DNA of 64,000 nt from the sequence record OP172790. One strand, given 5' to 3'. Origin of the DNA: Escherichia phage ECO319P1. This document shows positions 11,928-30,043 of this stretch, piece after piece. The position numbers were made by a program, and so were the translations under genes. Under the pieces are notes generated by a model, which saw nothing but the letters and a program-made list of their open reading frames with translations, did no database searches and was not told where the DNA came from. Numbering within the stretch: the stretch's first letter is position 1; each line of letters opens with the position of its first letter.

Positions 11928-11986
11928 TCGTGCCAAGCCCACTTTAGGATAGAGGTGGGCAACAACTATAAGGAGAGTAATCCCCG

Positions 11987-12412: not shown

Positions 12413-12421
12413 GGATTCACA

Positions 12422-13182: not shown

Positions 13183-13194
13183 CGGAGATTCAAC

Positions 13195-13798: not shown

Positions 13799-13808
13799 GA
13801 GGTGACAA

Positions 13809-14681
13809 ATGGTTTGGGCAGTTATTGAAAACCACAAAGGCCAACGGGAAGATTTCCGTAAGCCGTGCTTTGGTTTCATGTCCTACATTCATCAGTGGTA
13901 CGAAACTGACGAGTGGGACGACGAAGAGGACGATTGGGAATACGAATACCTTGAAGGTTTCGAACCCGCCGAACTCAACCTCATGCACTACTTCCCTGAT
14001 TTCCGCAACCATATGCCGAGTCAGGATTTGCCTGAGTTCCGTGAGAAGTATCTGCCTGTGCTGTTGGAAGCTGTGAAGCTTCTGCCTCAGTATTACTCGA
14101 ACGTTGAGTACACTGCTCCAACTGATAGCACTCAGGAGACGTTTACGTTCGCCCTGCAAGATGCGAACATGCAAACGACAATCATCGGTGCTATGATGCT
14201 GCGTAACATTGCTCAGTATTCTGGTATGCGTCGCGTGTTCCGTCTTTGCGTTGACGCTGGCCTTGACCCTGTAACCTGCTTCGTTATGGGTAACATGTAC
14301 AGCAGCAACTACTGCTCGTTTGGTGCTGATGCTGGTAAGTATCTGGCAAACCCTGTTCACTACGGTGACGAGTCAATCTTCCCAGATGAAACTCGCGCTT
14401 GTGATATCCAGGCGTTCATTGACGGTAAGCTCGGTCACATCTACCAAGGTGTGTGGGGCGATACTGAAAATGGTTATGGTCGTTATGGTGAGTATGACGG
14501 TGATACCGCACCTCGCTTTGAACGTACCGGTAATCGTTCAACCATCACTGACACTCTGCTGTTGGCTGATGATTACGTTGACTCACCATTGCTGATGGAT
14601 ATCGAAATCGGTGTTTGTTCATCGGCTCGCTTCAGTGATGAAGAGTTGATTGTTCTTGCTGGTAAAATTACTGGTAAATAA
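13809..14681 (+). CDS. hypothetical protein with acidic N-terminal tract (part of ligase cluster)
   Basis: 290 aa ORF; contains 12-mer copy 5. Confidence 0.5.
   Translation: MVWAVIENHKGQREDFRKPCFGFMSYIHQWYETDEWDDEEDDWEYEYLEGFEPAELNLMHYFPDFRNHMPSQDLPEFREKYLPVLLEAVKLLPQYYSNVEYTAPTDSTQETFTFALQDANMQTTIIGAMMLRNIAQYSGMRRVFRLCVDAGLDPVTCFVMGNMYSSNYCSFGADAGKYLANPVHYGDESIFPDETRACDIQAFIDGKLGHIYQGVWGDTENGYGRYGEYDGDTAPRFERTGNRSTITDTLLLADDYVDSPLLMDIEIGVCSSARFSDEELIVLAGKITGK
14359..14370 (+). repeat. copy 5 of 12-mer ACTACGGTGACG
   Basis: exact match, read as H-Y-G-D. Confidence 0.9.
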
Positions 14682-14692
14682 AGGATAAAACA

Positions 14693-15637
14693 ATGTCAGT
14701 AAAATTCGACGTAGTTTACAAGGATGGATTCAAATTGAAAATGACCTCAATTTGTTTCGGTGTAATGGAGAAGGGGCGCTGGAATGAAATCAACGGGTAT
14801 CGCAATATGCCCGCTGAGAATCATCAGGATGCAGACCAGCGCTTCATTCAGTTCTACACCAACGCTTACATTCACCCGATGTGGGCGTATGAAGAAGGTA
14901 TTAAGCGCGATTGGCCTCGTGGTGAAGATAACCAAGAAGGTCGAAACAAAGCTTCGAAGAACTTCATCAATGAGATGAAAGAACTTCAGAAAGACATGCC
15001 GTTCCTGCAAGGGCTTGTCACCTTCCATCCATTGTTACACGTTGCCCGTGTGCATATCAAAAATCACACGGTTGACCAGATTATGCTGGCATTGTTTTTG
15101 GTACGTAACATGTGCCATTACAGCAACAACTGTTTCACTTACCGCTGGTTACGTGAGACATACAACATGCGTCCAATGCTGGCGGCAGTAATGTGCCATC
15201 AGTTCTCAATGGACTTAGGCTCGTTCGGGCGTCATTCGTTCTCTCCAGCATGTCTGGGTGAGTACAACTGGATTAACCCCCAGACGTTCGGTAAAGAGTC
15301 GTTGCTTCGTTTCATGACCCATACGAAAGAAACAGAATTCGAATATCGTCAGGGCATGTGGAAGGACAGTAAAGGTTATCGTCGTGACGACCACTTTGCT
15401 CGTAACGATGTTATCTTCGACAGCGAAATCGGCGGCTCGAACAAATACTGGAAGATGGTAGCACCATTCAGTATTCCGGGCGACGAAGCGATTAATGCCA
15501 ATCAATGTAAAGACCGTTATAGCGGTATGGTGATTGGTCGCAGTTGGAACCACGAACTGAGCCAAGGTGAAGTAGAGAACTACATCAGTGGTGTTCTCGA
15601 ACTTCTGGCAGAAAACAATATCCCAGCAACTCTCTAA
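14693..15637 (+). CDS. hypothetical protein (part of ligase cluster)
   Basis: 314 aa ORF with RBS; no recognisable motif. Confidence 0.5.
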   Translation: MSVKFDVVYKDGFKLKMTSICFGVMEKGRWNEINGYRNMPAENHQDADQRFIQFYTNAYIHPMWAYEEGIKRDWPRGEDNQEGRNKASKNFINEMKELQKDMPFLQGLVTFHPLLHVARVHIKNHTVDQIMLALFLVRNMCHYSNNCFTYRWLRETYNMRPMLAAVMCHQFSMDLGSFGRHSFSPACLGEYNWINPQTFGKESLLRFMTHTKETEFEYRQGMWKDSKGYRRDDHFARNDVIFDSEIGGSNKYWKMVAPFSIPGDEAINANQCKDRYSGMVIGRSWNHELSQGEVENYISGVLELLAENNIPATL

Positions 15638-15649
15638 GGTAATAAAGAC

Positions 15650-16447
15650 ATGCGTAAGATTTACTTAGGTTCAGACCCAGAGCTGTTTACTCGTGATGCA
15701 AACGGCCTCGTATCATCTGTAGCTGGTAAGCTCGGTGCTGATAAGTATCACAAACGCCATGTCACGGACGACATTCGCATTCAGGAAGATAACGTGCTGG
15801 TTGAATTTGATATCAACCCGCATGGCACATTTGCAGGGTTCAACGATAACATGATGCGTGGTATCGCTGCCTGTAATGACGCTGCGAAATCTGTCGGTCA
15901 CGAAGTTGACCTGACTATCTGCTCTCACGTTTTCAGCGATGCAGAGCTTCGTACTTTCCACAAAGACGCATTCGTGTTTGGCTGTGAGCCAGACTTCAAT
16001 GCCCTGACTGGTTCTCGTAATGCGAAACCGGCTGCTGCGGATGTAGGTCTGCGTACTGCCGGTGGTCATATTCATATCGGTTATAACGAAGACCGCAACG
16101 TTGACTCTGAATCTCAGAAGATTCTGGGTGTAATGTGTGATTACTTCCTCGGTATGCCAGCTATCCTTCTGGATGGTGACGACCGTCGTAAAGAACTGTA
16201 TGGTAAAGCTGGAGCTTGCCGCTTCAAAACCTACGGTATCGAGTATCGTGTTCTGTCCAACTTCTGGACTCTGGACGATAAGATGCGTCTGTGGGCTTGG
16301 GAACAGGCTCATAAAGCATACGACTTCACTGTTGGTGATGCAATGGTGTTGGCGTCAATTGTTGACCCGGAAGAAATTCAGCGTGTCATTAATAACAATG
16401 ACAAGGCAATGGCTGAACATTACATCAAGCTGCTGGAGATTATGTAA
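15650..16447 (+). CDS. predicted COOH-NH2 ligase (GCS2-like, phage type)
   Basis: N-terminal GSDPELF and central GGHIHIGY resemble the phage COOH-NH2 ligase type 2 family as I recall it; not verified by search. Confidence 0.5.
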   Translation: MRKIYLGSDPELFTRDANGLVSSVAGKLGADKYHKRHVTDDIRIQEDNVLVEFDINPHGTFAGFNDNMMRGIAACNDAAKSVGHEVDLTICSHVFSDAELRTFHKDAFVFGCEPDFNALTGSRNAKPAAADVGLRTAGGHIHIGYNEDRNVDSESQKILGVMCDYFLGMPAILLDGDDRRKELYGKAGACRFKTYGIEYRVLSNFWTLDDKMRLWAWEQAHKAYDFTVGDAMVLASIVDPEEIQRVINNNDKAMAEHYIKLLEIM

Positions 16448-17025
16448 TGGCTTTACACGATGATTTTGCAATGTACTATAATGGTACATATGTTGGTTAT
16501 CGTAAAGATGGGGATGTAGTCCCCTTCTACATCGAAGCGGTTGATACTGACCGCTCAATCTTTGATTACTCAGAAGCGTCTGAGTCAGAGATGTTCGGTG
16601 ACCAAGCGCTGAGTGCGTTGACCTTCTACGGAAGTATCGACGGCAACCGTGCAACGATTAACCACGACGACCCGAATCTGGTTCTTGAAATGCCAGATAG
16701 TAAGTACATCCAGTTCCGTGGACGTTACTATTGGGTTCAATGGCGAGCGAACCGTTCCACTAAGAAGGGAATGGGTCAGCGTCGTCTCTCAGGCATTCCG
16801 CAATTCAACCATGAAGTCGCTCGTGCGATGTTCTCGGAGCGGTCTGCACCAAACGTAATCGCAGGATGCTTGTTACGTCAGAATAATGAACTTCACTACA
16901 AGGGTGTGGTGGTCGGTTCAATCAATGGCAACGAAGTTGTGTTGGTTTCCGAAGCTGCTCACCTGTTACGTTTTGTATCACGGGAGATGCAGGAATGCCA
17001 AGTTTCGGTAGCACAAGCGGGCTAA
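16447..17025 (+). CDS. hypothetical protein (part of ligase cluster)
   Basis: 192 aa ORF; overlaps the next gene by 31 nt. Confidence 0.4.
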   Translation: MALHDDFAMYYNGTYVGYRKDGDVVPFYIEAVDTDRSIFDYSEASESEMFGDQALSALTFYGSIDGNRATINHDDPNLVLEMPDSKYIQFRGRYYWVQWRANRSTKKGMGQRRLSGIPQFNHEVARAMFSERSAPNVIAGCLLRQNNELHYKGVVVGSINGNEVVLVSEAAHLLRFVSREMQECQVSVAQAG

Positions 17026-18506
17026 GTGAGTCGTCATTAGCAACCCTCCGCGAAGCGGGGGTGATTGACTCAGAAGGTAACTGGTTAACTGGTAACATGC
17101 CTTCACCTTTTGGTGGAGGTTTGGTTGGTTATAACACTGCTGATGTTATTCCTGACACACCACCACCAAGACCAGCACGGACAAGACACGATGGGCGACC
17201 ATTGCGTTCAAGTTCGTATGCCGACATGTTCGGTGGTCTTCGTGCTCAGCCGGTTGCTATGGATGAAATGCCTGAGACTTCAGGTGATTATTATATTTCT
17301 GGTAATGTAGAGGCCGATTCAGAAATGCAAACTATTGCGCAAATTGTTGGGCACCGTGCAACTTATCCAACTCTTGAGAAGCATCCGCTGATTGTAGGTA
17401 CAAATTTGGCAGGTGTTGAGATTGAGTTGGAGGGCATCACTGCTCGTGCTCCACGTTTCAACTACTGGACAGCAAAAGGTGATGGCTCTCTCCGTAACCG
17501 TGGGATGGAATTTGTTTGTTCATCTCCGTGGGGTGGTCGTGACCTGTACAATGCAGCCATTGAAATTGATGGTTGGTTGTTCACTGCTCAGCCAGAAGAT
17601 ACTTGGCGTTGTTCTACTCACGTACACATTGATGTTCGTGATATGACTGTGCCGCAGTTGAAGCGAATGATTCTGGCATATGCAGTTTACGAACGTATTC
17701 TGTTCAAATGCTCAGGCTTCCATCGTTACAAGAATAACTTCTGTGTAGCGTTGGGCTTCGCTCAGGAGTTGGTAACAACTCTGTCTAATGCGTGGGCACT
17801 TCCTGATAACCAGTTCATCAGTCGTTTGACTGGAAATTGGGATAAGTATTCCAGCATCAACATGCTTCCGATTCAGCAGTTCGGCTCTGTCGAATTCCGT
17901 ATCAGTGAAGCGAAGTGGCGCAAAGGTCGTCTGATTCGTTTGGTTAACCGCTTCCTGTCTCTGAAAGAGATTGCGATGCAGCCATTCGAGGGTTCAGAGT
18001 CTGAATTCATTCAGATGCTGGTCAATACCCCGATTAGCAAAATCATTCGTAAAGGTCTGCCGAAGGTTCTTCCAGATGCAGAGATGGATATCGAGATTGG
18101 TTATAAACTGGCTCACGATATCATTAGCATGGCGGCCTTGCGTCGCCTGTCTATCCGCCCTCTGGTTCCGAATCTGTCAGATGATTCACGACAGTTTAAC
18201 GTTGAAATCTTCGAGCCGGGTTATGAGCATATTATGACTCGTATCAACCGCTCAGATAATAACGTTGAGTTGCCTCGTGAAGCCCCTGCAACTATCAACT
18301 TTAGTTGGTGGTATGAAGTTGAGAATCTGATGCTTCAGATGGGTCATACCTACGAGCGCAGTTGGTTCACAGCATCAAGCAACAACCGTCAGATTCACTC
18401 ACTGTTCGAAGAGTATTGTCGTGAACGTCGTGCTGAGCGTCGTCGTCAGGATGAAATCGTTGAACGTGAAGATGATGAAGACGATACCTCTCCAGAGTTC
18501 TGGTAA
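16995..18506 (+). CDS. predicted amidoligase (glutamine-synthetase-like)
   Basis: GVEIELEG...RNRGMEFV...STHVHIDV pattern; 503 aa. Confidence 0.6.
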   Translation: MPSFGSTSGLSESSLATLREAGVIDSEGNWLTGNMPSPFGGGLVGYNTADVIPDTPPPRPARTRHDGRPLRSSSYADMFGGLRAQPVAMDEMPETSGDYYISGNVEADSEMQTIAQIVGHRATYPTLEKHPLIVGTNLAGVEIELEGITARAPRFNYWTAKGDGSLRNRGMEFVCSSPWGGRDLYNAAIEIDGWLFTAQPEDTWRCSTHVHIDVRDMTVPQLKRMILAYAVYERILFKCSGFHRYKNNFCVALGFAQELVTTLSNAWALPDNQFISRLTGNWDKYSSINMLPIQQFGSVEFRISEAKWRKGRLIRLVNRFLSLKEIAMQPFEGSESEFIQMLVNTPISKIIRKGLPKVLPDAEMDIEIGYKLAHDIISMAALRRLSIRPLVPNLSDDSRQFNVEIFEPGYEHIMTRINRSDNNVELPREAPATINFSWWYEVENLMLQMGHTYERSWFTASSNNRQIHSLFEEYCRERRAERRRQDEIVEREDDEDDTSPEFW

Positions 18507-18565
18507 GAATAAATGTGGGGTGTAAAAGCCCCAACTTCAATGTAAATAGATGAAAGGATTTTTGT

Positions 18566-20536
18566 ATGTGTGGGATTGTTCTCGCTGGTGGTAACTTAAT
18601 CGCTCGTGATGTTGAACTGTTCGGTCGTCTACTGTATGCAGATATCGTTCGTGGTGAGCATTCAACGGGTGTGTTCGCAGGGTTTCGTCCTTTTGGTCAT
18701 GACCCAATCCTGAAACTTCGTAAAGCCGCTGTTCCGGCAGATATCTTCTTACGCCGCAAAGAGTTATGGGGTGAAGTGCGTGAACACGCAGTTCCTTCAA
18801 AGACTGTTGCAAATTCTTTCACAACTGCCTATCCGAAATTTATGGTAGGCCACAACCGTTATGCAACTCAGGGTGCAATTAACGATACGAACGCTCACCC
18901 GTTCAACCACGGTAAAATCACTCTGGTTCACAATGGTACATTGACTGACCAGTCTCTGCTCCCAGACCATAAGAACTTCGCTGTTGACAGTGAAAACGTC
19001 GCATGGTCAATCAACAAAATCGGTATTGATGAAACTATTCAGAAATTGAATGGTGCATTCACTCTGGTTTGGCATAACGCCGAAGACAGCACGGTGAACA
19101 TCATCCGTAACGAAGAACGTCCATTCCATCTGGTTGAAACAACTGGTGGTGATTGGTTCGGTGCTTCGGAAGAAGACATGCTTCTGTGGTTAATTAACCG
19201 CAAGAAGTTTGCTCCAACAATCAAACGTCACTTTGAATGTGAAGTAGGTGTTCAGTACGTCTTTGACGTATCCGAAGGCTTCAAGTTCAAGGAGGAACGG
19301 AAGCATACGCTTCCAACCTTTCGCTCATATTCCTACACTGGAAGAACTGGTGGTTATTGGTATGACCAGTGGGATGATGACTATGGGTACGGAAACGGAC
19401 GAGGAACTTCAACAACTTCTCGCAACCAATCCAATAGCCAGAGCTTTAGCTCAAGCTCTTCTAGCGTAACACCGGACAGCCGTTACAAGCAGTTCAATGA
19501 TATGCTGGAAAGCCACGGCATCAACGTCAAAATGGGTGAGCAACTCCGCTTCGAGAGCTTCCAGTTTGACCAGTATCCTAAGTCTCTGGGCAAGGGTAAA
19601 ATGACCGGGTATACTGGCACTGGCGAGTATATTGAGGTTCAGGCTCACGGCACTGATATGGGCATCTTTGTTGAAGGTGCTGAGTACGATGGTAAGATTA
19701 TCTCGTGCTATGAGCAGAATTACATTCTGACAATTATCGTTCAAGACCCAAAACCTGCTCATGTTAATCAGACACTGACCCTCGGTGATTTGGTTAACTC
19801 GGCGGCAAAGGAAACTCCAATTCCTGATACAGGGATTAGTCAGGAAGAGTTGAACGAAGAGTACTACGGTGACGAGGAAGAAGACGACGGCAACGAAGTC
19901 GAAGTAACCTTGAACGGTGAGGTGTACTCAAAAAAGGAATGGGAGGGAAACGACTCATTAAATACTTGCGCAAACTGTTCCTCTCCAATCCCCTTCGACG
20001 ACGTGATTGATACGGTTGTCGATAATGGCGCTGCATTCTGCCATGATTGCGCAAAGCATTACAACCTGTTACCCCCTGAGACGGAGGAGCCAATTGCTCC
20101 TAACCGTTTCGTCTGCCAAAGCTGTGCCAACGAATTGCCGGAAGATTTAGAATCGGCAAAGCCGGGTGTCTGCATTCCTTGTCTTTGCGCTGTAACTAAA
20201 GACAACAATACGGAAATGGCACGTCAACAGTTAATCGAAAAGTACGACCGTTGGGAATCCAATTTGATGCCAGAGGAAGTGGTCACTCCACTGCTTCCGA
20301 AACCAACTGAAGTCTCTCTCGGTGAAATTTCACTGATTCGCAAGAAGTTGAAAAACAACTTGCTGGTTACTGTTAAGCAGTGGATGAAGATGAACAACTG
20401 TGGTTGGTGTCAAAAGCCAATCCAGTGGGTTGATGCTGAAGCCACTGAATTTGTTGGTCAGCAGCCATGCTGTCCGGGATGCTCCAAGAAATTAGAGATG
20501 GGCATCCTTCCAAAACCTATCAATAAGGATAAATGA
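18566..20536 (+). CDS. class II glutamine amidotransferase (Ntn) domain fused to Ser-rich linker and three C-terminal zinc ribbons
   Basis: MCGI N-terminal nucleophile, GHNRYATQG, VHNGTL; CxxC pairs in the C-terminal 200 aa; contains 12-mer copy 6. Confidence 0.7.
   Translation: MCGIVLAGGNLIARDVELFGRLLYADIVRGEHSTGVFAGFRPFGHDPILKLRKAAVPADIFLRRKELWGEVREHAVPSKTVANSFTTAYPKFMVGHNRYATQGAINDTNAHPFNHGKITLVHNGTLTDQSLLPDHKNFAVDSENVAWSINKIGIDETIQKLNGAFTLVWHNAEDSTVNIIRNEERPFHLVETTGGDWFGASEEDMLLWLINRKKFAPTIKRHFECEVGVQYVFDVSEGFKFKEERKHTLPTFRSYSYTGRTGGYWYDQWDDDYGYGNGRGTSTTSRNQSNSQSFSSSSSSVTPDSRYKQFNDMLESHGINVKMGEQLRFESFQFDQYPKSLGKGKMTGYTGTGEYIEVQAHGTDMGIFVEGAEYDGKIISCYEQNYILTIIVQDPKPAHVNQTLTLGDLVNSAAKETPIPDTGISQEELNEEYYGDEEEDDGNEVEVTLNGEVYSKKEWEGNDSLNTCANCSSPIPFDDVIDTVVDNGAAFCHDCAKHYNLLPPETEEPIAPNRFVCQSCANELPEDLESAKPGVCIPCLCAVTKDNNTEMARQQLIEKYDRWESNLMPEEVVTPLLPKPTEVSLGEISLIRKKLKNNLLVTVKQWMKMNNCGWCQKPIQWVDAEATEFVGQQPCCPGCSKKLEMGILPKPINKDK
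19863..19874 (+). repeat. copy 6 of 12-mer ACTACGGTGACG
   Basis: exact match, read as Y-Y-G-D. Confidence 0.9.
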
Positions 20537-20537
20537 T

Positions 20538-20771
20538 ATGGATAATTCAATGAGTGAAGTGAAGGTTTTGCGTCTGGATTCACCTGTGGTGGTTCGAAAA
20601 GTTCCAATGACTGACTTCGGTAGTGATATGCTCCGAGCCATTCGTCGCTTCCAAACTGAGGCGTATGAACGTGCAAAAGGTCAGAAGGTGGAAATCCCTT
20701 ATCCTGTGTGTATTCACATGATGATGTCGGATTACTGCAAGCTGAAAGGCATCCAAGTAACCAATGGCTGA
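20538..20771 (+). CDS. hypothetical protein
   Basis: 77 aa ORF. Confidence 0.4.
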   Translation: MDNSMSEVKVLRLDSPVVVRKVPMTDFGSDMLRAIRRFQTEAYERAKGQKVEIPYPVCIHMMMSDYCKLKGIQVTNG

Positions 20772-20976
20772 TAAAGATGTCGAAAAGGCTCGCAAGGAAA
20801 GCGAGTCTTGGCACAACCGTCAGATTGGAAACTTGTTAGAAGAAGAGTGGGAGTACGCAAAACAAATGGGTACTCAGGAGGGCCAAGAGGCCATCTGGTA
20901 TCTCACTCTTTCTTATGAAACACTGGAAGCAGAAATCATGGAACACAAACGTGATATCCGTGAACTTCATCTTTGA
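20764..20976 (+). CDS. hypothetical protein
   Basis: 70 aa ORF. Confidence 0.4.
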   Translation: MADKDVEKARKESESWHNRQIGNLLEEEWEYAKQMGTQEGQEAIWYLTLSYETLEAEIMEHKRDIRELHL

Positions 20977-21046
20977 GTGAGTTATTTATAGGGTGTCGGT
21001 GAAGCGCCCTATGTGAAATTCATTCTCAACTAAAAGGTACTTATCA

Positions 21047-22246
21047 ATGGCACGTTTAGCAATCTACTCCCACGCTCCTTCTGATTCTGTTAATGCACTT
21101 AAAGCGCACTTATCAGTGGAAGGCGTTGACCTGATTAAAATCAAGCGTCAGAACAGCCGCTTCGCTGGTCGTGAAGGCGATGTAATCATTAACTATGGTT
21201 CATCCTCTTTCCCAATGGAACGTGTTGGTCGTGGTCGTCTGCTGAACAATCCGGGAGCAATCTCTCTGGCTTCTAACAAACTTCGTGCATTCGAGGTGTT
21301 CCAGAACGCTGGGGTTAAGACTGTAGAGTGGACTAATCAACACTCAATCGCTCAAGGTTGGGTAGAACAAGGTGGTATGGTTTATGCAAGAACAACGCTT
21401 CAAGGACATTCTGGTGCCGGTATCGTTATTGGCTACGGAAATCCTGCCGGAGTGGGAGATGCGGGCGACGTACAGGTTACTAGCACCCTTCCTCGCGCAC
21501 AACTGTACACCAAAGCAATCCTGCAAGAACGTCGAGAGTTCCGAATCCATGTAATGGATGGTAAGATTACTTACGTTCAGCAGAAACGTCGTCGTGATGG
21601 TTTCCGTGAGAATGAAACCTACAGCAATCTGGTTCGTAACCACCACACTGGTTGGATTTATGCAACTCAGAACGCTGATGTGTGTGACGAAGCGAAGCGC
21701 GAAGCAATCAAAGCAATCGAAGCTTTAGGTCTGGACTTCGGTGCAGTAGATGTAATCACACGCCGTGGTGAAGCATGGGTTCTCGAAGTCAACACTGCTC
21801 CGGGCATGTCTGGCACTAACCTCGAAACTTATGCAAACAACTTCACTCGCCTGATGAACGGTGAACCCGTTGAAGGTGTAGTGGTTGATATGTCTATCCC
21901 TGTGGAGACGAACAATGATAACCGCAACACCCGTAATGAACGCCAGTCTGGCAATCGCAATACACAACCTCAACCAGAACAACCTCAACCAGAACAACCG
22001 ACGCCAACCCCTGTCGCTACCCCAGCGCCAACAGCACCAGCCGAAGCGCCGGTTTCCTCAGCGACAACCCGCAACACCAATGGTACTGCATTAATTGATA
22101 ACGGTGTTTACAAACTGTTGGTTGATGGTAATGCCACTGTTGGTAAATTCGTTCAAGATTGTGCCCACTTCGAAATTCTTGGCTGGGAGGTTCCGGTCGA
22201 GCATGAAGATGCAACTATTGGGGAACTCCTGTGCACTTTGAACTAA
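21047..22246 (+). CDS. ATP-grasp ligase (RimK/glutathione-synthetase-like) with Pro/Glu-rich linker and extra C-terminal domain
   Basis: GAVDVITRRGEAWVLEVNTAPGMSG ATP-grasp core; QPQPEQPQPEQPTPTP linker. Confidence 0.65.
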   Translation: MARLAIYSHAPSDSVNALKAHLSVEGVDLIKIKRQNSRFAGREGDVIINYGSSSFPMERVGRGRLLNNPGAISLASNKLRAFEVFQNAGVKTVEWTNQHSIAQGWVEQGGMVYARTTLQGHSGAGIVIGYGNPAGVGDAGDVQVTSTLPRAQLYTKAILQERREFRIHVMDGKITYVQQKRRRDGFRENETYSNLVRNHHTGWIYATQNADVCDEAKREAIKAIEALGLDFGAVDVITRRGEAWVLEVNTAPGMSGTNLETYANNFTRLMNGEPVEGVVVDMSIPVETNNDNRNTRNERQSGNRNTQPQPEQPQPEQPTPTPVATPAPTAPAEAPVSSATTRNTNGTALIDNGVYKLLVDGNATVGKFVQDCAHFEILGWEVPVEHEDATIGELLCTLN

Positions 22247-22476
22247 GTAATGGTGACAGTGTAGAACTGCGGGGAAACTCACAGGCTGCACGTTTCATCT
22301 ACTTGGCTATGCCCTTCCAAGGACTCCAGTTTGCGGAGGGGCAAGAGAAGCCAAGAATTACAATGACCCCAGAGGTCAAGGCAATCATCCGGTTGTCTGA
22401 AAAGTTTCGTGCTCGCTTAATTGAGCGGGCTTTGAAAGTCGAGGACTTGTTCCAAGACGAAGACATTCCCTTTTAA
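22231..22476 (+). CDS. hypothetical protein
   Basis: 81 aa ORF. Confidence 0.35.
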   Translation: MHFELSNGDSVELRGNSQAARFIYLAMPFQGLQFAEGQEKPRITMTPEVKAIIRLSEKFRARLIERALKVEDLFQDEDIPF

Positions 22477-22484
22477 GGTGTGAA

Positions 22485-23018
22485 ATGGAAACTGCACATA
22501 GTTTAATTCATAATGGATTCTTAAAAGTACATTCAACAACTGTTGATGGTAAAACTTATGAGTATCTGGAAAGCAAGCCGACTGTCTCTACGCTTCTTGT
22601 GGAACAACAAGGGAACCCTCTGGATGATATCCTCACCATTGGTGTTCAACATCGTATTGGTGCATCTGCTGGGGAGTTGAAAGAAAATGCTATCTACACA
22701 CTCGCCTCTGGTTACGTTGATGGTAATGAGACCACAACTGATGCTGCGCATCGTGAAGCCGAGGAAGAATTTGGGGCACGGGGTCATGTTTTTAAATTGG
22801 GAGCAGGATATAACTCGCCTGGAATCTCAACTCAAATTACGGAAATGTTCTGGATGAATGTCCAAGAATGGCATGAGCCGATTGACCCCGGCGAAGGTGT
22901 GAAGCCTATCAAGTTAACTCTTGGTCAGGTTCTGCACATGGTTAAATCCCCGTTCACAGTGCTCAGTATGCCACTGACGAACACAATCCTGCTTTATGCT
23001 GCAATGCGTGGTGTCTAA
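22485..23018 (+). CDS. Nudix hydrolase (ADP-ribose pyrophosphatase-like)
   Basis: Nudix box GYVDGNETTTDAAHREAEEEFGA. Confidence 0.7.
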   Translation: METAHSLIHNGFLKVHSTTVDGKTYEYLESKPTVSTLLVEQQGNPLDDILTIGVQHRIGASAGELKENAIYTLASGYVDGNETTTDAAHREAEEEFGARGHVFKLGAGYNSPGISTQITEMFWMNVQEWHEPIDPGEGVKPIKLTLGQVLHMVKSPFTVLSMPLTNTILLYAAMRGV

Positions 23019-23245
23019 TGTCTGAACAATACCGCCCGAAACTGATGGTAATGGGTGTTCCACACCGTGTTACCTATACCAACTACAAAGGTGAAACTCG
23101 GGAACGAACCATAATCCCGATTAACATGTGGTTTGGTCACACTGACTTCCATAAAGAAGACCAGTGGTTACTCCGCGCACTTGACAAAGAGAAAGGTCAA
23201 GTACGTGATTTCGCCCTTAACGATATGACTCCCAACTGGAAATAA
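23018..23245 (+). CDS. hypothetical protein
   Basis: 75 aa ORF. Confidence 0.35.
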   Translation: MSEQYRPKLMVMGVPHRVTYTNYKGETRERTIIPINMWFGHTDFHKEDQWLLRALDKEKGQVRDFALNDMTPNWK

Positions 23246-23249
23246 TCAA

Positions 23250-23435
23250 ATGAAAATTCAAGTTACGCTGTGCTCTGGTATTAAACATGAAGCTGATGCT
23301 GATAATATTACTACTGACCCTTCTTGGGTTGTTCTTTCCAAGAAGATTGAAAAGCGTGATACGATTGTTGCCGTATTCCCGGCACACACTGTTGTTGAAG
23401 TTGTTAATAAAACTCATGTTAAGGAAGTGAAATAA
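23250..23435 (+). CDS. hypothetical protein
   Basis: 61 aa ORF. Confidence 0.3.
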   Translation: MKIQVTLCSGIKHEADADNITTDPSWVVLSKKIEKRDTIVAVFPAHTVVEVVNKTHVKEVK

Positions 23436-23947
23436 TGTTGAAACTGATTCCTGCTCGTGGTGGTGTTCGTCATACTTTTGCAAACGGTAGCATCATTAAA
23501 ATTAAACGTGGTGCTGCTCTGACTGGTGAAATCCGAATCGAGTCAGCGCCTCGTGGTAATCGTGCTGTCCTGTACAGCCCAACTGGCGATATCATTCGCT
23601 CTCGTGAGAACACCTTCGCTCTGACCTCTCACAACATCCGTAGCCAGTTCTGGAGCGAGACTTATGGTTGTGCTCTGCATCTGGTTGTACCGGAGCCAAC
23701 TGTTGCTCCTGCTGTCTCTCAGGAACCTGTTGATGATAAGACCAAAGTCATTGACGAGTTCGATGTTGATGGTAAATACATCGTCTGGTGTCCGGGTTCT
23801 GAACTGCCACCTCGCGTAGTTCTGGAAGGTCGTAAACAAGCGAAAGCTGTTGCGATTAGCATGGCTCAACGCCACGGAAAAGAATTCCATTGGTGTCGCC
23901 TGATGGGTTCCGCTAAACCAGTGACCACTATTACTGTAACGGAGTAA
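23435..23947 (+). CDS. hypothetical protein
   Basis: 170 aa ORF. Confidence 0.45.
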   Translation: MLKLIPARGGVRHTFANGSIIKIKRGAALTGEIRIESAPRGNRAVLYSPTGDIIRSRENTFALTSHNIRSQFWSETYGCALHLVVPEPTVAPAVSQEPVDDKTKVIDEFDVDGKYIVWCPGSELPPRVVLEGRKQAKAVAISMAQRHGKEFHWCRLMGSAKPVTTITVTE

Positions 23948-23952
23948 CAGAC

Positions 23953-24918
23953 TTGAAATTCGAGAAATTCCAATCTCTCGTAAATGAGTCTATGAAGAAC
24001 GTTGGAGGTTTCCTTCGGGATTCCTCCTTCGGGAAACGTAAGGCCATTGTTACCGAGAAAATCCACGGTGCTAACTTCTCTGTCTACTTCGGTTGTAAAG
24101 ACAATGTGGTTGGTATCAACTTCGCTTCTCGTTCTCAGATGCTGTGCCCTGAAACTAACTTCATGAATTGCCAACGCTACTTCACTGAAGAAAAGATTCA
24201 GGAATTGCTGGAACATGCTTCCACAATCATGGCTCTGGACAAATGTGAACTTCGTATCATCGGTGAAATTTACGGTGGCATGGATATCGCTGGAATCAAA
24301 CCCGTTCAGCGAGAAGTCCACTACTCCGGTGATATTGGCTTCCGTGTGTTCCATGCACAAATTGCCAACAACGAAACTGGTGAAGTCTTTGACTACAACT
24401 GGAAGAATGTGAAAGCTCTTGCCAAAGATTTTGGCTTTGAGGTCGCACCAATTGTGGCTGAAGGTCTGACCTTTGAACAGGCTTATGCACTTGACCAGAA
24501 GGTTAAGTCTGCTCTGTCTGACAAAGACCAGATTTGTGAAGGTTACTGTATCCGCGTTGATGCAGATGAAGAAGGTCAAGCACCTTTAATCTTCAAGAAG
24601 CGTAATACTGAGTTCCTTGAAACCAAGGGCACTGTGAAGGCTCCTCAGAATACTGTAGAGCAGACGCAACTCGGTATGGAAGCAATGGCACGTATTGGTG
24701 CATTCATCACACCACAGCGTGTTTCTAACGTCAATAGCCACCACGGTTTCGATAGTCCAAAAGACTTCCAGAAACTGATGGAAGCTGTACTTGATGATGT
24801 GCTCAATGAGTACAAAGCCGAGTATGACGTAGACCTTCGCAATGAGTTGGTCTGGAAAGAAATTAAGCGTTCAGTTGGAGCACAGGTAGTGCCGCTGGTA
24901 CGTGAAGTTCTGCTGTAA
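23953..24918 (+). CDS. RNA ligase-like nucleotidyltransferase (Rnl2-type)
   Basis: motif I lysine in TEKIHGANF; TTG start after GGAG RBS. Confidence 0.6.
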   Translation: MKFEKFQSLVNESMKNVGGFLRDSSFGKRKAIVTEKIHGANFSVYFGCKDNVVGINFASRSQMLCPETNFMNCQRYFTEEKIQELLEHASTIMALDKCELRIIGEIYGGMDIAGIKPVQREVHYSGDIGFRVFHAQIANNETGEVFDYNWKNVKALAKDFGFEVAPIVAEGLTFEQAYALDQKVKSALSDKDQICEGYCIRVDADEEGQAPLIFKKRNTEFLETKGTVKAPQNTVEQTQLGMEAMARIGAFITPQRVSNVNSHHGFDSPKDFQKLMEAVLDDVLNEYKAEYDVDLRNELVWKEIKRSVGAQVVPLVREVLL

Positions 24919-24944
24919 TTATTGCACATTAATATAGGTTAAGG
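24916..24944 (+). promoter_or_regulatory. phage promoter element (TAATTATTGCACATTAATATAGG)
   Basis: conserved element copy. Confidence 0.5.
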
Positions 24945-24952
24945 ATAATCTT

Positions 24953-25561
24953 ATGTTTTTACTTCTGAATGGCTCCAACATCACTGGTATTTCTTCAAAC
25001 GTTGCTGACTTGGTTGCTCATATTAAGAACCTTCATGATTCGGAAAAGTTGAAGTTTGAAACTCCGAATGCTATTCCAGCTTATACAGTGAATAGCTACA
25101 ACAACGCTACGAATTATGCAGCACAGATGATTCGTAACTTGAAGATTATGAAAGTTGTGGGTGACAACCTGTTGCCAATCAACAACAATCCATATCTCCA
25201 ACTGATGAACTGGCAAGGTCATATTCTGGTTGATGGTGTTACTGATATTACAAGTCAGTACTTCACTGTTGAGCAGACAACTTATGACGGCCCACAGAAA
25301 GTGTTTGCAACGGTTGCTAAGAAGGGCTTGAAGTCTTCAGGTATGGATGTTATTGTTGACCCTAATCAGGTCGGTCGTGGCGTTCGTACACCAGAGCAGT
25401 ATGAAGAGTTGTGTGGAACCTTTGCGAAAGTTAAGGTGTCACTGAATATCAATGCAAATGGTTGGTATGGTGCTACACTGTTCATGAGTGCTGACTCTCT
25501 GACAAACTATCGAGTTGAAACTCAGCAGGTCACTGGCTTCAAAGCAGTGTTCGCAGAGTAA
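24953..25561 (+). CDS. hypothetical protein
   Basis: 202 aa ORF bracketed by promoter element and hairpin. Confidence 0.5.
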   Translation: MFLLLNGSNITGISSNVADLVAHIKNLHDSEKLKFETPNAIPAYTVNSYNNATNYAAQMIRNLKIMKVVGDNLLPINNNPYLQLMNWQGHILVDGVTDITSQYFTVEQTTYDGPQKVFATVAKKGLKSSGMDVIVDPNQVGRGVRTPEQYEELCGTFAKVKVSLNINANGWYGATLFMSADSLTNYRVETQQVTGFKAVFAE

Positions 25562-25569
25562 TTTGCAAG

Positions 25570-25600
25570 AAGGCTTCTACGGGAGCCTTGTTTCGAATTT
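25570..25600 (+). terminator. candidate intrinsic terminator
   Basis: stem AAGGCT/AGCCTT with 8-nt loop followed by GTTTCGAATTT. Confidence 0.4.
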
Positions 25601-25616
25601 GTAAAAGGAAAACAGA

Positions 25617-25973
25617 ATGTTAGTAAAAGATGAAAGAGGTAGTATCAATTTTATCGACGAAGAAGATAACTTCGTTGGTTTCAGAAGCTACCAGTGCTGC
25701 TGTGAAAACTTCGGTTGGCATATTACTGACTCGAACGACGAGCACATAAACATTGTGGAAAATGACCCAGAGTTTCTCCGTGGATTCCTCTTCAACACTG
25801 ACAAAGAGCCGACTGAATCTGCTGACTCTGATTATGGTGATGGTGGTAGCGTTAGCTTCCAACTGATAAACAGTATGACAGGTGAAACACTTTGCCTGAC
25901 CCTGTATAACCACCACAACGGTTATTATAGTCACGGATGGCAATCATCCTTTGGTGGAAGTGGCTCCCTCTAA
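25617..25973 (+). CDS. hypothetical protein
   Basis: 118 aa ORF. Confidence 0.4.
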   Translation: MLVKDERGSINFIDEEDNFVGFRSYQCCCENFGWHITDSNDEHINIVENDPEFLRGFLFNTDKEPTESADSDYGDGGSVSFQLINSMTGETLCLTLYNHHNGYYSHGWQSSFGGSGSL

Positions 25974-25982
25974 AAATTTACT

Positions 25983-26015
25983 AAAGGGTTCTTTTTAAGA
26001 ATCCTTTGTTGAATT
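25983..26015 (+). terminator. candidate hairpin terminator
   Basis: 9-bp stem AAAGGGTTC/GAATCCTTT then TTGTTGAATT. Confidence 0.35.
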
Positions 26016-26039
26016 AACCCAAACTGAATAGGATTTAAA

Positions 26040-26474
26040 ATGAAAGAGTTTATGAACCCAAAAGCTGACCACGTATTCATTGCAACTTATGGCTCACTGC
26101 GTCGTAACATGCAGAACTTCCGAGTCAATGCAAGTGGTGGCGGTGAGTTCATCGGTATGGGTAAGACTGATGATAAATACAATCTGTATCGTTATTCAGG
26201 TTGTTATTTCCCAAGCGTCTCACTGAAACACAGCAGCAATGATAAGCAAGTTGTTGTGGATGTATTTGAAGCTCCGGTGGATGGCATGGAAGGGGCATAT
26301 GATATGCTCGAAGGTTATCCGAGCTTCTACAATCGCACTCAGATTCCGGTGACTCTGGAAGATGGTCGTAGCGTTATGGCGTGGATTTATCACATCGACA
26401 CAGAACAATCTGAACTGATTGAATCTGGTGACTGGTGTGAACATAATGTCGAAGACTACTACAAATCACTGTAA
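26040..26474 (+). CDS. gamma-glutamyl cyclotransferase-like (AIG2/GGCT fold) protein
   Basis: N-terminal YGSL motif and YDMLEGYPSFYNR segment. Confidence 0.55.
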   Translation: MKEFMNPKADHVFIATYGSLRRNMQNFRVNASGGGEFIGMGKTDDKYNLYRYSGCYFPSVSLKHSSNDKQVVVDVFEAPVDGMEGAYDMLEGYPSFYNRTQIPVTLEDGRSVMAWIYHIDTEQSELIESGDWCEHNVEDYYKSL

Positions 26475-26495
26475 GTTTTGATATAGAGGTATCCG

Positions 26496-27005
26496 ATGAA
26501 GAAGATTATTGCTGTTGATATCGAACAGGCTGAAGGTGTAGGCTTTGTTGTCTACAACGAAGGAAGTGAGGTTCCCGTGAAAGCGGGAGTCTTTAAGATT
26601 GGTGATGGTGTTAAGATTAAGAATAATGATATTCTTTCTAATACCACAGCAGGCACCCTACAGGGTTTTAGCTACAGTTCAGCGAAAAACTTACTGGCTC
26701 ATATTCATTGGCTGGCTGGTGCTCCTCCGATTAAAACCCTTTTGTCAAACATTGTCCTCGACCGACCTCAGAAGTTTTGGTTAGTTGCGGGTGATATGGA
26801 GAGTACAGGGCAGCCAGCCCATGCTCACTATACAACTGGCGGTCTTCGTGACGTCCGAGCGGGGACTCATGCTCCTCGTGTTCGCTACTGGTCTGAGCAA
26901 GAAGCCATCCAGCAAGCGACTCAAATGACTAATACCTACGGAATCAGGCACTTAGTCTTTGAGGCCACATTTGGTTGTAATTCTGACAACCACTTTGCAC
27001 TATAA
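26496..27005 (+). CDS. hypothetical protein
   Basis: 169 aa ORF. Confidence 0.45.
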   Translation: MKKIIAVDIEQAEGVGFVVYNEGSEVPVKAGVFKIGDGVKIKNNDILSNTTAGTLQGFSYSSAKNLLAHIHWLAGAPPIKTLLSNIVLDRPQKFWLVAGDMESTGQPAHAHYTTGGLRDVRAGTHAPRVRYWSEQEAIQQATQMTNTYGIRHLVFEATFGCNSDNHFAL

Positions 27006-27054
27006 TCGGATACGGTGCAACTAGGAATAATTTTCTGACACGGAATAATGGAAT

Positions 27055-28854
27055 ATGTCAAAAGTATACGGAGCTAAACGGATTATCGGTGACTCACCTT
27101 GCCCAACTTGTACAGCGGCAGGTCGTGACAGAACCGGTAATCACTTGCAACACTGGATTAACGATGATACAGGCGAAGAGTGGGTTTATTGCGGACGTGA
27201 TGGTTACTATGAAAAGGTAACTGATGCAAACCGTGCTGACCTTGAATCTGTTCGTCATGTTCATCGTGAATTAACTGATGAAGAACGTGCAGCGGTTCTC
27301 GCTGAGGTTGACGAGTTGCCAATTCAGGAACTCACATCTCGTGGTATCCGAAAGGAAATCGCTGAACGTTATGGTGTTCGTGTTGGCCTGTCCAGCACTA
27401 ACCGTGAACAAATCTCTCACTTCTATCCGAAAGAGAAAGATGGTGAGGTGGTCGCTTATAAAGTTCGTAGTCTTGAGCCGAAGTATTTCTATGCGGTTGG
27501 TTCAGGTAGCGGATGTGATTTCTTTGGCATGTCTCAGGCTCGTCTGGGTGATGTGTACAGTGGCAAACTGTTCGTATTCGAAGATGAACTGAGTGCAATG
27601 TCAGGTTTCCAAGCTCTCATTGACGCATCCAAGTCAACTTACAAACCAGCATGTGTGGCTTTGCCAGATGGTGCAGGTTCGGCAGCAAGTGCATTTGCAC
27701 GTTGTCGTCAGTTTGTTGAGTCATTCCAAGATATCGTGGTCTGTATGGATAACGATGAAGCGGGTGATGATGCAGTTAACAAGCTGAGAGCGATGTATCC
27801 AAACATCAAGATTGCTCGTATTCCGAAGGGTATCTACGGTGACGGTAAGCATATCAAAGACGCCAATGACATGATTATGGCTAAGCGTTCTTTGGAGTTA
27901 AACAACTGCTTACGCTTCAATGCTGCAAAAGAATCTCCAGCAGGTTCAACAACTGTAGCGGAATGTATTGAAGATGCGCTGAAGAAACCTGAATGGGGTC
28001 TGAGTTATCCGTGGAAAGGTCTTACTGACTTAACCTTTGGTTTACGTTATGGTGAGGTGATTGCAATTGGTGGTGGTGTAGGTGGTGGTAAAACATTACT
28101 GGCACACGAACTGAGTGCTCACTTAATCAACGTTCACAAAGAGAAAGTTGGTGCATTCATGTTGGAAGAAACTGTAGGTAATACCATCAAGAACATTGCT
28201 GGTAAATCTGCAAATATTCCATTCCATCGTCCAGATGCTGAGTTCGACCCAGAACTGCTGAAAAGCGAAGCACTGAAATACGATGGTCACTTGTTCCTGT
28301 ATCGTAACTTCGGTCAAAACGATTGGGAAGATATCAAACGTTGTATGCGTTTCTGGGTTGTTGAACATGGTGTCAAGTTCATCTTCCTCGATAACATCAC
28401 AGCATTGGTATCACACTTGACAGCAACTGAGATTAACACTGAAGTTGCGAAGATTGCTGTTGAGTTGGCAGGTATGTGTAACGAGTTGGACTTCACTTGT
28501 TTTGTATTTAGCCACTTGAACCCACCGAAAGGTGGTGCTCCTCACGAGGAAGGTGGTCAAGTACAAGAGGTGCAGTTCACGGGTTCCCGTGCTCTGATGC
28601 GTTTCTCTCAGTTAATTCTGGGCTTTGAACGCAACAAGCAGGCAGATGGTGATGCTCGTAACCTTTCTCAGATTCGTCTGTTGAAAGACCGTAACTTCGG
28701 GCAGACAGGTCTTGTACCAACATCTTATAATCCAGTGACAGGCCGCTTAACACAGCGTCGTGATGAAGATTATGACCCGAAAAATCCGTTCCGCTTACCG
28801 GGTGAGCATGAGGACGACATGCAGGAAGATAATGGAAAGGATAAACCATTTTGA
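27055..28854 (+). CDS. bifunctional primase-helicase (T7 gp4-like)
   Basis: N-terminal Zn-binding Cys cluster, Toprim acidic motifs (FEDE, MDNDEAGDD), Walker A GGGVGGGKT. Confidence 0.85.
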   Translation: MSKVYGAKRIIGDSPCPTCTAAGRDRTGNHLQHWINDDTGEEWVYCGRDGYYEKVTDANRADLESVRHVHRELTDEERAAVLAEVDELPIQELTSRGIRKEIAERYGVRVGLSSTNREQISHFYPKEKDGEVVAYKVRSLEPKYFYAVGSGSGCDFFGMSQARLGDVYSGKLFVFEDELSAMSGFQALIDASKSTYKPACVALPDGAGSAASAFARCRQFVESFQDIVVCMDNDEAGDDAVNKLRAMYPNIKIARIPKGIYGDGKHIKDANDMIMAKRSLELNNCLRFNAAKESPAGSTTVAECIEDALKKPEWGLSYPWKGLTDLTFGLRYGEVIAIGGGVGGGKTLLAHELSAHLINVHKEKVGAFMLEETVGNTIKNIAGKSANIPFHRPDAEFDPELLKSEALKYDGHLFLYRNFGQNDWEDIKRCMRFWVVEHGVKFIFLDNITALVSHLTATEINTEVAKIAVELAGMCNELDFTCFVFSHLNPPKGGAPHEEGGQVQEVQFTGSRALMRFSQLILGFERNKQADGDARNLSQIRLLKDRNFGQTGLVPTSYNPVTGRLTQRRDEDYDPKNPFRLPGEHEDDMQEDNGKDKPF

Positions 28855-29345
28855 TTAAACTTGCAGCCACGGATATTGAAACGAATGGATTGTACTTTGA
28901 TGTAAATCTATTTCACTGTGCATGGATTGTGGAGCCATTAACCGGAAAACGGTTTGGCTTCCGTCCAGACCAACTTAAAGAATACGTTGAGAAGTTAATG
29001 ACTTATGACATTCTCATTGGTCACAACGTAATCGACTATGACTTCCCAACTATTAAGAAACTTTGTCCGGGATTTGAATGTCCGGCTGTTTTTGATACGT
29101 TGGTTCTTAGTCGTATGTTGGAACCAGACAGACCACAAGGTCACTCGTTGAAATCTTGGGGTGTAGCTCTTGGTTTGCTGAAAGGTGATTATGGTGAACA
29201 GGAAGATGCGTGGGACGTATTCACAGAGGACATGTATGTTTACTGTGAACGAGACGTTGACGTAACGGTTCTGCTCTATAAACACCTGTGTGAAAAGGCC
29301 GGTTTTGACTGGCAAAATCCACCATCAAATACTTTCAAATTCTGA
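28851..29345 (+). CDS. 3'-5' exonuclease domain of T7-type DNA polymerase, encoded as a separate gene
   Basis: Exo I DIETNGL, Exo II HNVIDYDF, Exo III YCERDVD; close to my recollection of T7 gp5 N-terminus; TTG start overlapping upstream stop. Confidence 0.75.
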   Translation: MIKLAATDIETNGLYFDVNLFHCAWIVEPLTGKRFGFRPDQLKEYVEKLMTYDILIGHNVIDYDFPTIKKLCPGFECPAVFDTLVLSRMLEPDRPQGHSLKSWGVALGLLKGDYGEQEDAWDVFTEDMYVYCERDVDVTVLLYKHLCEKAGFDWQNPPSNTFKF

Positions 29346-29361
29346 GTAAGGATACTCTGCG

Positions 29362-29383
29362 TTGGGTACTATAATATGTACCC
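29362..29383 (+). promoter_or_regulatory. variant promoter-like element inside a short palindrome
   Basis: TTGGGTACTATAATAT resembles the TTGCACATTATAATA core; GGGTAC/GTACCC inverted repeat around TATAAT. Confidence 0.3.
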
Positions 29384-29488
29384 TCGCTATTTTATTATGG
29401 ATAGCCTAATGGAAATCGCTGGAATCATGTTCCAGTATGATAGCGACCTTGATATTATTTTCGTAACTGATGAAATGGAGATTCTATA

Positions 29489-30043
29489 ATGTTACTTTCT
29501 GCACCCCAACTGCATAACTTAATCGACGATGGTGTTATTGATGCGTTACATGAAAACGTTAACTCAGCAAGTATCGACGTTCGTATTGGCTCTGAAATTC
29601 TGGTGGAAGCTAAGGTCAGCGAACTCACCGCTCCCGTGGACATCGCAGCTAAGGAATCTCCTCAGTTCGACAAAGTGACAATCCCCGAAGAAGGCGTTGT
29701 TATTAAGCCGGGTCAGTGCTTCTTGGCTCACACCGTTGAGACATTTAACCTGCCCGACACTATCAGTGGTCAATTCATTGAACGTTCCACTGTTGCTCGT
29801 TGTTTCCTTGAACACATGCAGGCTGGTTGGGCTGATGCTGGTTGGCATGGCGCTCAGCTCACTCTTGAGTTCAAGAACATGAACGAACACCACTCCCTGT
29901 TAATCAAGCCGGGTATGCGTATCGGTCAGATGGTATTCTTCCAGCACGAAACTGTTGGTGAGGATTCCTATGCTGTAAAAGGCAACTACAACAACCAACG
30001 TGGTGCAACTCAAGCTTACTCAGGAGAAGGTCATAATGTATAA
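29489..30043 (+). CDS. dcd: dCTP deaminase
   Basis: dUTPase-fold Dcd-like N-terminus; 184 aa. Confidence 0.7.
   Translation: MLLSAPQLHNLIDDGVIDALHENVNSASIDVRIGSEILVEAKVSELTAPVDIAAKESPQFDKVTIPEEGVVIKPGQCFLAHTVETFNLPDTISGQFIERSTVARCFLEHMQAGWADAGWHGAQLTLEFKNMNEHHSLLIKPGMRIGQMVFFQHETVGEDSYAVKGNYNNQRGATQAYSGEGHNV

Follow-up and report, generated by a model that had tools for sequence, protein, structure and literature searches.

Why would a phage carry a gene resembling those of the γ-glutamyl cyclotransferases (GGCT), and does its product work with the ligases encoded upstream of it? The question is raised by a 64,000-nucleotide stretch of Escherichia phage ECO319P1 (sequence record OP172790), here called the window, in which an open reading frame (ORF) with an ATG start occupies positions 26040-26474 of the plus strand, stop codon included, and specifies 144 amino acids. 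The first-pass annotation of the window read this ORF as a GGCT-like protein because of its YGSL start and a central acidic motif, and proposed that it could trim or recycle the product of ATP-grasp and amidoligase genes lying about 4 kb upstream. Sequence and structural modelling now place the gene product as a well-conserved γ-glutamyl cyclotransferase-type enzyme with predicted cyclotransferase activity. The further question, what it acts on, is approached below through its gene neighborhood in phages at large.

The Pfam model PF06094 (GGACT/AIG2-like) matches residues 16-133 of the protein, scoring 64.3 bits where 22.8 is the gathering threshold (E=2e-17) and spanning positions 3-119 of the 120 in the profile. 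The PHROG family phrog_2520 ('gamma-glutamyl cyclotransferase') matches with E=1e-45. Chance does not come near to explaining such scores; none of the NCBIfam models matches the protein. A search of 5.8 billion proteins found 156 relatives, with PF06094 present in all 120 among the matches listed. When the profile of a 27-homolog alignment was run against the PDB, mouse and human γ-glutamylamine cyclotransferase (GGACT) were recovered. The AlphaFold2 model of the protein (pLDDT 96.3, pTM 0.90) had as its best Foldseek matches PH0828, human and mouse GGACT (including the 5-oxoproline complex 3juc), c4763, YkqA, human GGCT and ChaC2; the top 22 PDB matches (E<=1e-3) were all GGCT-fold proteins, with TM scores up to 0.72. 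The Pfam and PHROG hidden Markov models (HMMs), the PDB profile search and the modelled structure all agree on the fold claimed at first pass, in which a β-barrel and the helices beside it enclose a cavity.

Two features define the active site of the GGCT superfamily, namely a YGSL motif in the β1-β2 loop and a catalytic glutamate (bioRxiv 10.1101/2025.01.15.633182). Both of the motifs picked out at first pass are real and correspond to them. The N-terminus of the protein is MKEFMNPKADHVFIATYGSLRR, in which YGSL forms residues 17-20 (codons at 26088-26099, plus strand) and aligns with YGTL in GGACT from human and mouse. The acidic motif at the center reads YDMLEGYP (residues 87-94) and includes Y87-D88-M-L90-E91-G92; its Glu91 (codon at 26310-26312, plus strand), the predicted catalytic general acid/base, falls in the column of human GGACT E82. 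Since this column holds E in wild-type human GGACT (3jub) and Q in the E82Q mutant (3jud), E91 is identified as the catalytic glutamate. In the 27-homolog alignment the residues Y17, G18, S19, L20, R21, N26, Y87, D88, L90, E91, G92, Y97 and R99 are invariant, as are Y117, H118, I119, G130, D131 and W132, and about 90% of the 113 GGCT ORFs in the surveyed loci retain both the YGSL and the catalytic Glu motifs. Every defining feature of the GGCT family that is open to in silico testing is thus present in the phage protein.

Comparison with human and mouse GGACT (PDB 3JUB, 3JUC, 3JUD, 1VKB), the mammalian type being specific for ε-(γ-glutamyl)-lysine, brings out likeness and distance alike. The fold is shared (Foldseek probability 1.0, TM 0.65-0.72), as are the YG(S/T)L loop, the catalytic Glu (E82/E91) and a Y-x-R motif, and GGACT is the best PDB sequence relative (E from about 1e-6 to 1e-4) although identity is 24-25%. 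Unlike GGACT, the phage subfamily has invariant motifs of its own, R21, Y117-H118-I119 and G130-D131-W132.

The window is related to the Cronobacter phages vB_CsaP_GAP52 and A24 (Grimontviridae, Crifsvirus): of a 16-kb stretch compared with them, 92-96% aligns, at a nucleotide identity of 86-87%. Against its A24 ortholog the GGCT gene has 3 non-synonymous and 21 synonymous codon differences, a ratio of non-synonymous to synonymous rates (dN/dS) of 0.03, so it is a real gene under selection, and that selection is strongly purifying. An AGGA box resembling a Shine-Dalgarno ribosome-binding site can be read directly from the sequence at 26030-26033 (plus strand), 6 nt before the ATG. A24 gp046, its GAP52 counterpart, the phiEco32 'YtfP/UPF0131 protein' and LUZ24 gp22 belong to the same family and sit in the same module slot upstream of a primase/helicase gene; the window protein is 98% identical to those of A24 and GAP52, about 55% to that of phiEco32 and about 30% to the LUZ24-like ones, and the window differs from these phages only in the spacing from the ATP-grasp gene. 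In 7-11-like phages (locus L007, Salmonella phage 7-11 type, 9806-10465) the GGCT ORF is longer, 219-224 amino acids, owing to an N-terminal extension of about 70 residues (proteins P0032, P0033, P0037 and P0049).

The ATP-grasp and amidoligase genes named in the first-pass annotation do exist, with Pfam and PHROG matches at 15650-22246. Four core module genes lie together there on the plus strand, in the same order as in A24 and LUZ24: a phiEco32-like COOH-NH2 ligase type 2 (15650-16447; Pfam PF14395, phrog_3815), a glutamine-synthetase-like amidoligase of the Amidoligase_2 family (16995-18506; Pfam PF12224, phrog_38711/7469), a 656-residue protein with a class-II (Ntn) glutamine amidotransferase (GATase) domain (18566-20536; Pfam GATase_6/7, phrog_4736) and a RimK-family ATP-grasp ligase (21047-22246; Pfam RimK/Dala_Dala_lig_C, phrog_2599), which in other phages is usually the gene right beside GGCT. 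As the ATP-grasp gene ends at 22246, the GGCT gene lies 3.8 kb downstream on the same strand, close to the 4 kb estimated at first pass. In LUZ24 the order is COOH-NH2 ligase gp16, gp17, amidoligase gp18, GATase gp19, gp20, ATP-grasp gp21, GGCT gp22, gp23 and primase/helicase gp24, with gp22 beginning at the stop codon of gp21; phage UFV-P2 has a gene order identical to the LUZ24 module (PMC3890496). By this synteny the module of the window is that of LUZ24, interrupted by an insertion that parts GGCT from ATP-grasp. The ATP-grasp-GGCT spacing is 0 in LUZ24, about 0.5-0.9 kb in phiEco32-like phages, 3.8 kb in the window and about 22 kb in IMG/VR contig 3300033688_000039.

How general is this association? 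Among 50,697 phage records, tblastn found GGCT in 189, ATP-grasp in 312 and COOH-NH2 ligase in 310. The counts of the three genes are equal to one another in Escherichia (93 phages), Proteus (8), Salmonella (7), Cronobacter (6) and Shigella (3). With LUZ24 gp22 as the tblastn query, 105 Pseudomonas records were recovered, plus 2 listed under Bruynoghevirus, so that the shortfall of GGCT (189 against about 310) is mostly a matter of sensitivity. A single-sequence search for GGCT loci gave one locus and was replaced by an alignment-based scan, which found 56 loci at 23-61% identity in metagenomic viral contigs; distant module genes, which plain tblastn under-detects, were recovered with iterated HMMs. 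At least one core module gene lies within 10 kb of GGCT in 47 of these 56 GGCT-anchored viral loci, and three or four in 36. In eight of the remaining nine loci the contig stops about 1.3 kb or less from GGCT; the ninth (L009) does have a ligase cluster in its contig, but 22 kb upstream (L069).

The linkage holds in at least four gene orders, GGCT coming either right after ATP-grasp or right before it. The first is the arrangement of the window, phiEco32 and LUZ24; the second runs GATase, COOH-NH2 ligase, amidoligase, ATP-grasp, with GGCT on either side; the third, in marine contigs of 90-100 kb, runs GGCT, ATP-grasp, Peptidase_C26 (C26), COOH-NH2 ligase, GATase, amidoligase; and the fourth is a minimal pair of amidoligase and GGCT in Bacillus phage 031MP004. 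Where GGCT shares a locus with ATP-grasp (98 ORFs, a tally that counts some contigs twice), it lies at most 14 nt downstream in 36 cases and at most 68 nt upstream in 11, so that the two genes abut in 47 of 98. Co-occurrence with the ligase genes had been set beforehand as a test of the first-pass proposal; it is seen in the 47 of 56 loci and is kept across the rearranged orders. The linkage of GGCT to the ligase module is very strong and survives gene rearrangement.

Viewed from the ligase side the association is looser. In 79 loci anchored on the COOH-NH2 ligase, Amidoligase_2 and GATase are each found in 77, ATP-grasp in 71 and GGCT, within 10 kb, in 44, which makes GGCT a frequent accessory and not a core gene. 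The phage GGCT subfamily is nearly absent from 185,579 cellular species genomes; five tiny contigs matched, and there are accordingly no cellular operons for comparison.

Do modules without GGCT carry something in its place? In Pseudomonas phage PA11 the module cluster starts with a gene of the Peptidase_C26 (γ-glutamyl hydrolase) family (L139 432-1049), and the whole PA11 genome has no GGCT match despite the module. Other loci also have a C26 gene (L079 8663-9307, L025 12530-13929 and many more), and nine further C26 ORFs checked with Pfam each scored higher with Peptidase_C26 than with class-I GATase. When 77 ligase-anchored loci with at least three core genes were tallied, 38 had GGCT only, 26 had C26 only, 6 had both and 7 had neither. 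These last seven comprise four with GGCT farther along the same contig, two that are truncated and one that is atypical, and no assessable module in the tally lacks both genes. In isolate phages, C26 occurs in 59 records, including 16 from Pseudomonas and 15 from Vibrio; none among the genera listed is Escherichia, Proteus, Salmonella or Cronobacter. The 121 Pseudomonas phages with the ligase are made up of 105 with GGCT and 16 with C26. The 64-kb window itself contains no C26 gene. That GGCT-less modules almost always carry C26 suggests that the pathway needs the removal of a γ-glutamyl group.

We favor, with somewhat better than even confidence, the reading that the phage protein is a catalytically competent γ-glutamyl(amine) cyclotransferase of the GGACT/AIG2/BtrG-like branch, a frequent accessory of a four-enzyme phage ligase module in which it acts as a de-glutamylation step. 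The ligases of the module would spend ATP to form one or more γ-glutamyl amide bonds on an amine or peptide acceptor. The YGSL loop of the GGCT-fold enzyme would then bind the γ-glutamyl unit with its free α-amino group, and Glu91 would activate the α-amine for attack on the γ-amide, giving 5-oxoproline and a free amine, so that GGCT would serve as a deprotection or turnover step. By their Pfam names both ligases fall in the GS/GCS (carboxylate-amine ligase) superfamily. The Peptidase_C26 family acts on γ-glutamyl amide bonds. So does the GGCT family (bioRxiv 10.1101/2025.01.15.633182). From this chemistry and the gene context we infer the reaction, a substrate that would be a product or intermediate of the module and, with it, the role in trimming or recycling the ligase product that the first-pass annotation put forward.

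Two known systems have a comparable logic. In the butirosin pathway the ATP-grasp ligase BtrJ is said to install a γ-glutamyl group, as reported by Llewellyn and colleagues in 2007. BtrG strips this protecting group during butirosin biosynthesis (bioRxiv 10.1101/2025.01.15.633182), releasing it as 5-oxoproline. The pairing of an ATP-grasp ligase with a GGCT-fold enzyme, likened here by description and not by sequence, recurs in the phages, where the two genes are adjacent in LUZ24 and many other loci and 3.8 kb apart in the window. The butirosin system uses an acyl carrier protein (ACP); the small protein next to the phage ATP-grasp is a DUF7195 protein and not an ACP, there was no ACP-type Pfam match among the module proteins scanned, and no carrier or other butirosin-pathway homologs were seen. 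In PuuA/PuuD pathways, a GS-like γ-glutamyl-amine synthetase works with a Peptidase_C26 hydrolase. The phage modules likewise combine a GS/GCS-superfamily ligase with a γ-glutamyl-removing enzyme, which is a Peptidase_C26 in those that lack GGCT. They differ in that the window encodes a cyclotransferase rather than a hydrolase, and that no relatives of the phage ligases with solved structures were detectable.

A stronger version of the favored reading, which we put forward only tentatively, is that the module obligatorily holds a γ-glutamyl-removing enzyme (GGCT, C26 or both) and runs a transient cycle of attachment, modification and detachment on an amine substrate. By analogy with the Puu and Btr systems the cycle might act on a polyamine or an amino-containing precursor, for example, a suggestion that we hold equally loosely.

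Several points weigh against the de-glutamylation reading. GGCT, found in 44 of the 79 ligase-anchored loci, is not universal and so could not be an indispensable step unless C26 truly substitutes for it. A neighbor-joining tree of the ligase resolves the GGCT/C26 pattern largely into three clades (both genes, C26 only, GGCT only), and a pattern so structured by clade reflects few evolutionary events. Within the lineage of the window GGCT stays beside the primase/helicase gene while its distance from ATP-grasp ranges from 0 to 22 kb, so tight co-transcription with the ligases is not required. The ATP-grasp protein resembles α-L-glutamate ligases, whose products would not be cleavable by GGCT. 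Finally, the searchable literature yielded no experiment on any member of the phage GGCT family or of the module.

Could GGCT instead act upstream of or beside the ligases, on host γ-glutamyl metabolites such as glutathione, γ-glutamyl-polyamines or peptides, either depleting a host pool or releasing an amine or 5-oxoproline for the module to use? Fold and catalytic residues would be identical in that case, and ChaC and GGCT of the same superfamily do degrade cellular γ-glutamyl peptides (bioRxiv 10.1101/2025.01.15.633182). The GGCT gene can also lie as far as 22 kb from the ligases, and Bacillus phage 031MP004 retains just the amidoligase and GGCT. A stand-alone degrader would, however, be expected in many ligase-free phages, whereas the subfamily is essentially confined to phages that bear the module, and in about half of the cases GGCT abuts ATP-grasp, on one side or the other. 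We regard action on host metabolites as unlikely, though it is the alternative that fares best.

The published reading is that the cassette modifies peptide side chains of peptidoglycan, for example to block superinfection, with GGCT and GATase taking part in peptidoglycan breakdown or recycling. It is set out in passages of PMC5498523 (citing Hardies 2013 and Iyer et al.), PMC11945000 and PMC10580990. It has in its favor that peptidoglycan does contain a γ-glutamyl linkage. The case is purely bioinformatic, however, and no supporting experiment was found in the searchable literature; the module is located among replication genes, and the N-terminus of the GGCT protein (MKEFMNPKADHVF...) lacks a hydrophobic signal sequence. 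The chemistry is a further obstacle. GGCT requires an L-γ-glutamyl unit with a free α-amino group, whereas in the stem peptide iso-Glu has the D form and is N-acylated by L-Ala, so that it should not suit this chemistry. We consider a role of GGCT in peptidoglycan modification improbable.

Could GGCT belong functionally with the primase/helicase replication module, its link to the ligases being inherited synteny? In the window and in A24, phiEco32-like, 7-11-like, Proteus-phage and LUZ24-like loci GGCT always lies about 0.4-1 kb upstream of primase/helicase, and insertions gather between ATP-grasp and GGCT. In the 90-100 kb marine contigs and several other architectures, however, GGCT has ATP-grasp, Peptidase_C26 and COOH-NH2 ligase for neighbors, and no primase/helicase gene is less than 10 kb away; the common denominator is the ligase module, and a tie to replication is very improbable. 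Just as improbable is a GGCT-fold protein that serves for binding or as a scaffold, without catalysis, akin to the C-terminal domain of allophanate hydrolase or to YtfP, both lacking the catalytic Glu. Such a role would fit a sub-threshold Pfam AH_C match (E=0.0018; 18.7 bits, cut-off 27), the Arg reported at the catalytic Glu position of E. coli YtfP, which makes that protein probably inactive (bioRxiv 10.1101/2025.01.15.633182), and the second GGCT-like paralogs with degenerate YGSL on some marine contigs, but it is at odds with the invariance of YGSL and Glu91 described above. YtfP (PDB 1XHS), whose name appears in older phiEco32 annotations, belongs to the same Pfam family as the phage protein and is a weak PDB profile match (E=0.002); the phage protein keeps Glu91 where YtfP is reported to have Arg. 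The second paralogs of the marine contigs lie just upstream of the canonical copy (L023 9349-9966, L033 9363-9983, L044/L046 9145-9978, L027 17517-18101, L133 5906-6739). They have a lysine/arginine-rich N-terminal extension and a degenerate YGSL (for instance YDSYR or YANLR), features that suggest they may be non-catalytic copies.

Returning to the module in which we place the de-glutamylation step, its genes in the window form part of a block (13809-28854), GGCT included, in which every gene is on the plus strand. The block opens with two genes of unknown function (13809-15637). Between the two ligases lies a conserved 192-residue protein (16447-17025; phrog_4877), which is present in 59 of the 79 COOH-NH2-anchored loci. 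Known domains match only residues ~90-207 of the 656-residue GATase-domain protein; for its C-terminal ~400 residues, sequence searches of Pfam, NCBIfam and the PDB gave nothing. It also has a far sub-threshold NCBIfam match (E=0.0056) to EgtC, a γ-glutamyl amidohydrolase, which we note as a lead only. PDB sequence searches gave no match for COOH-NH2 ligase and Amidoligase_2 and a spurious match only for GATase; the best PDB relatives of the ATP-grasp protein are RimK 5zct/4iwx, and its NCBIfam matches to rimK_fam/MptN are sub-threshold. The ATP-grasp protein varies in length, from 294 amino acids in LUZ24 (L058 11793-12674) through 399 in the window to about 620 in Proteus phages (L003 896-2752). 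The RimK-like domain match covers only its first ~270 residues and leaves out the C-terminal extensions.

The interval between GATase and ATP-grasp holds a small DUF7195 protein (20538-20771; Pfam PF23825, E=7e-37) and a small ORF (20764-20976), both on the plus strand. Enterobacterial phages conserve the DUF7195 protein at this place, and LUZ24 gp20 can be aligned to it. It was considered as a LysW/ACP-like carrier or a peptide substrate, and the idea was dropped because the protein has neither a Zn-ribbon nor an acidic C-terminus. The next interval, from ATP-grasp to GGCT, is a site of variable insertions. In the window it is filled by a lineage-specific insertion outside the module (22485-25973, plus strand, by Pfam and PHROG) with a NUDIX hydrolase (22485-23018), small ORFs, an Rnl2-type RNA ligase (23953-24918) and two unknowns; the insertion is absent from that position in LUZ24 and phiEco32-type loci. 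Downstream of GGCT are a 169-residue protein of unknown function (26496-27005) and a DNA primase/helicase (27055-28854; A24 ortholog annotation and HMM matches), the conserved downstream neighbor in the lineage, all on the plus strand. A short gene for a DNA polymerase/exonuclease fragment follows (28851-29345); the LUZ24 polymerase is also split.

Consensus promoter and terminator scans of 13000-29500 found no more sites than in shuffled sequence and are therefore uninformative on operon structure. The two best terminator-like hairpins (13600-13618 and 29364-29383), from a set no more numerous than in shuffles, lie on either side of the block that begins with the first module gene and ends with the DNA polymerase fragment. 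Their position is compatible with one long transcription unit. It is of note that in the Bacillus siphovirus 031MP004 (L138) the amidoligase (10006-10872) and GGCT (11974-12414) are followed, 6.5 kb downstream, by a poly-γ-glutamate hydrolase gene (18979-19617); this phage has no further core module gene.

How much of this was already known? RefSeq names the 98% identical A24 ortholog a γ-glutamyl cyclotransferase, and LUZ24 gp22 and many others likewise. In its passage on the cassette, Duhaime et al. 2017 (PMC5498523), citing Hardies et al. 2013, lists GGCT among seven genes conserved in RIO-1, phiEco32, 7-11, PA11, tf, LUZ24, PaP3 and CW02. The presence of GGCT in the cassette was repeated for a LUZ24-like phage in 2025 (PMC11945000), and the literature label is a putative 'peptidoglycan modification cassette'. 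Both the GGCT annotation and its association with the ligase cluster have thus been published as predictions, to which the reading of this ORF adds nothing: it is an ordinary, correct annotation of one component of a widespread phage enzyme module.

The module itself is found in about 310 of the 50,697 isolate phage genomes and in at least 594 IMG/VR contigs, in phages of Enterobacteria, Pseudomonas, Vibrio, Aeromonas and Rhizobia and in marine phages, and the searchable literature since the first prediction reports no product or phenotype for its five or more enzymes. The near-constant presence of a γ-glutamyl-cleaving companion narrows the chemistry of the module to γ-glutamyl amides. If a transient γ-glutamyl cycle does operate, it would contrast with the stable decoration of peptides or peptidoglycan assumed in the literature. 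GGCT also provides a direct experimental handle on the pathway, since a knockout should accumulate the intermediate.

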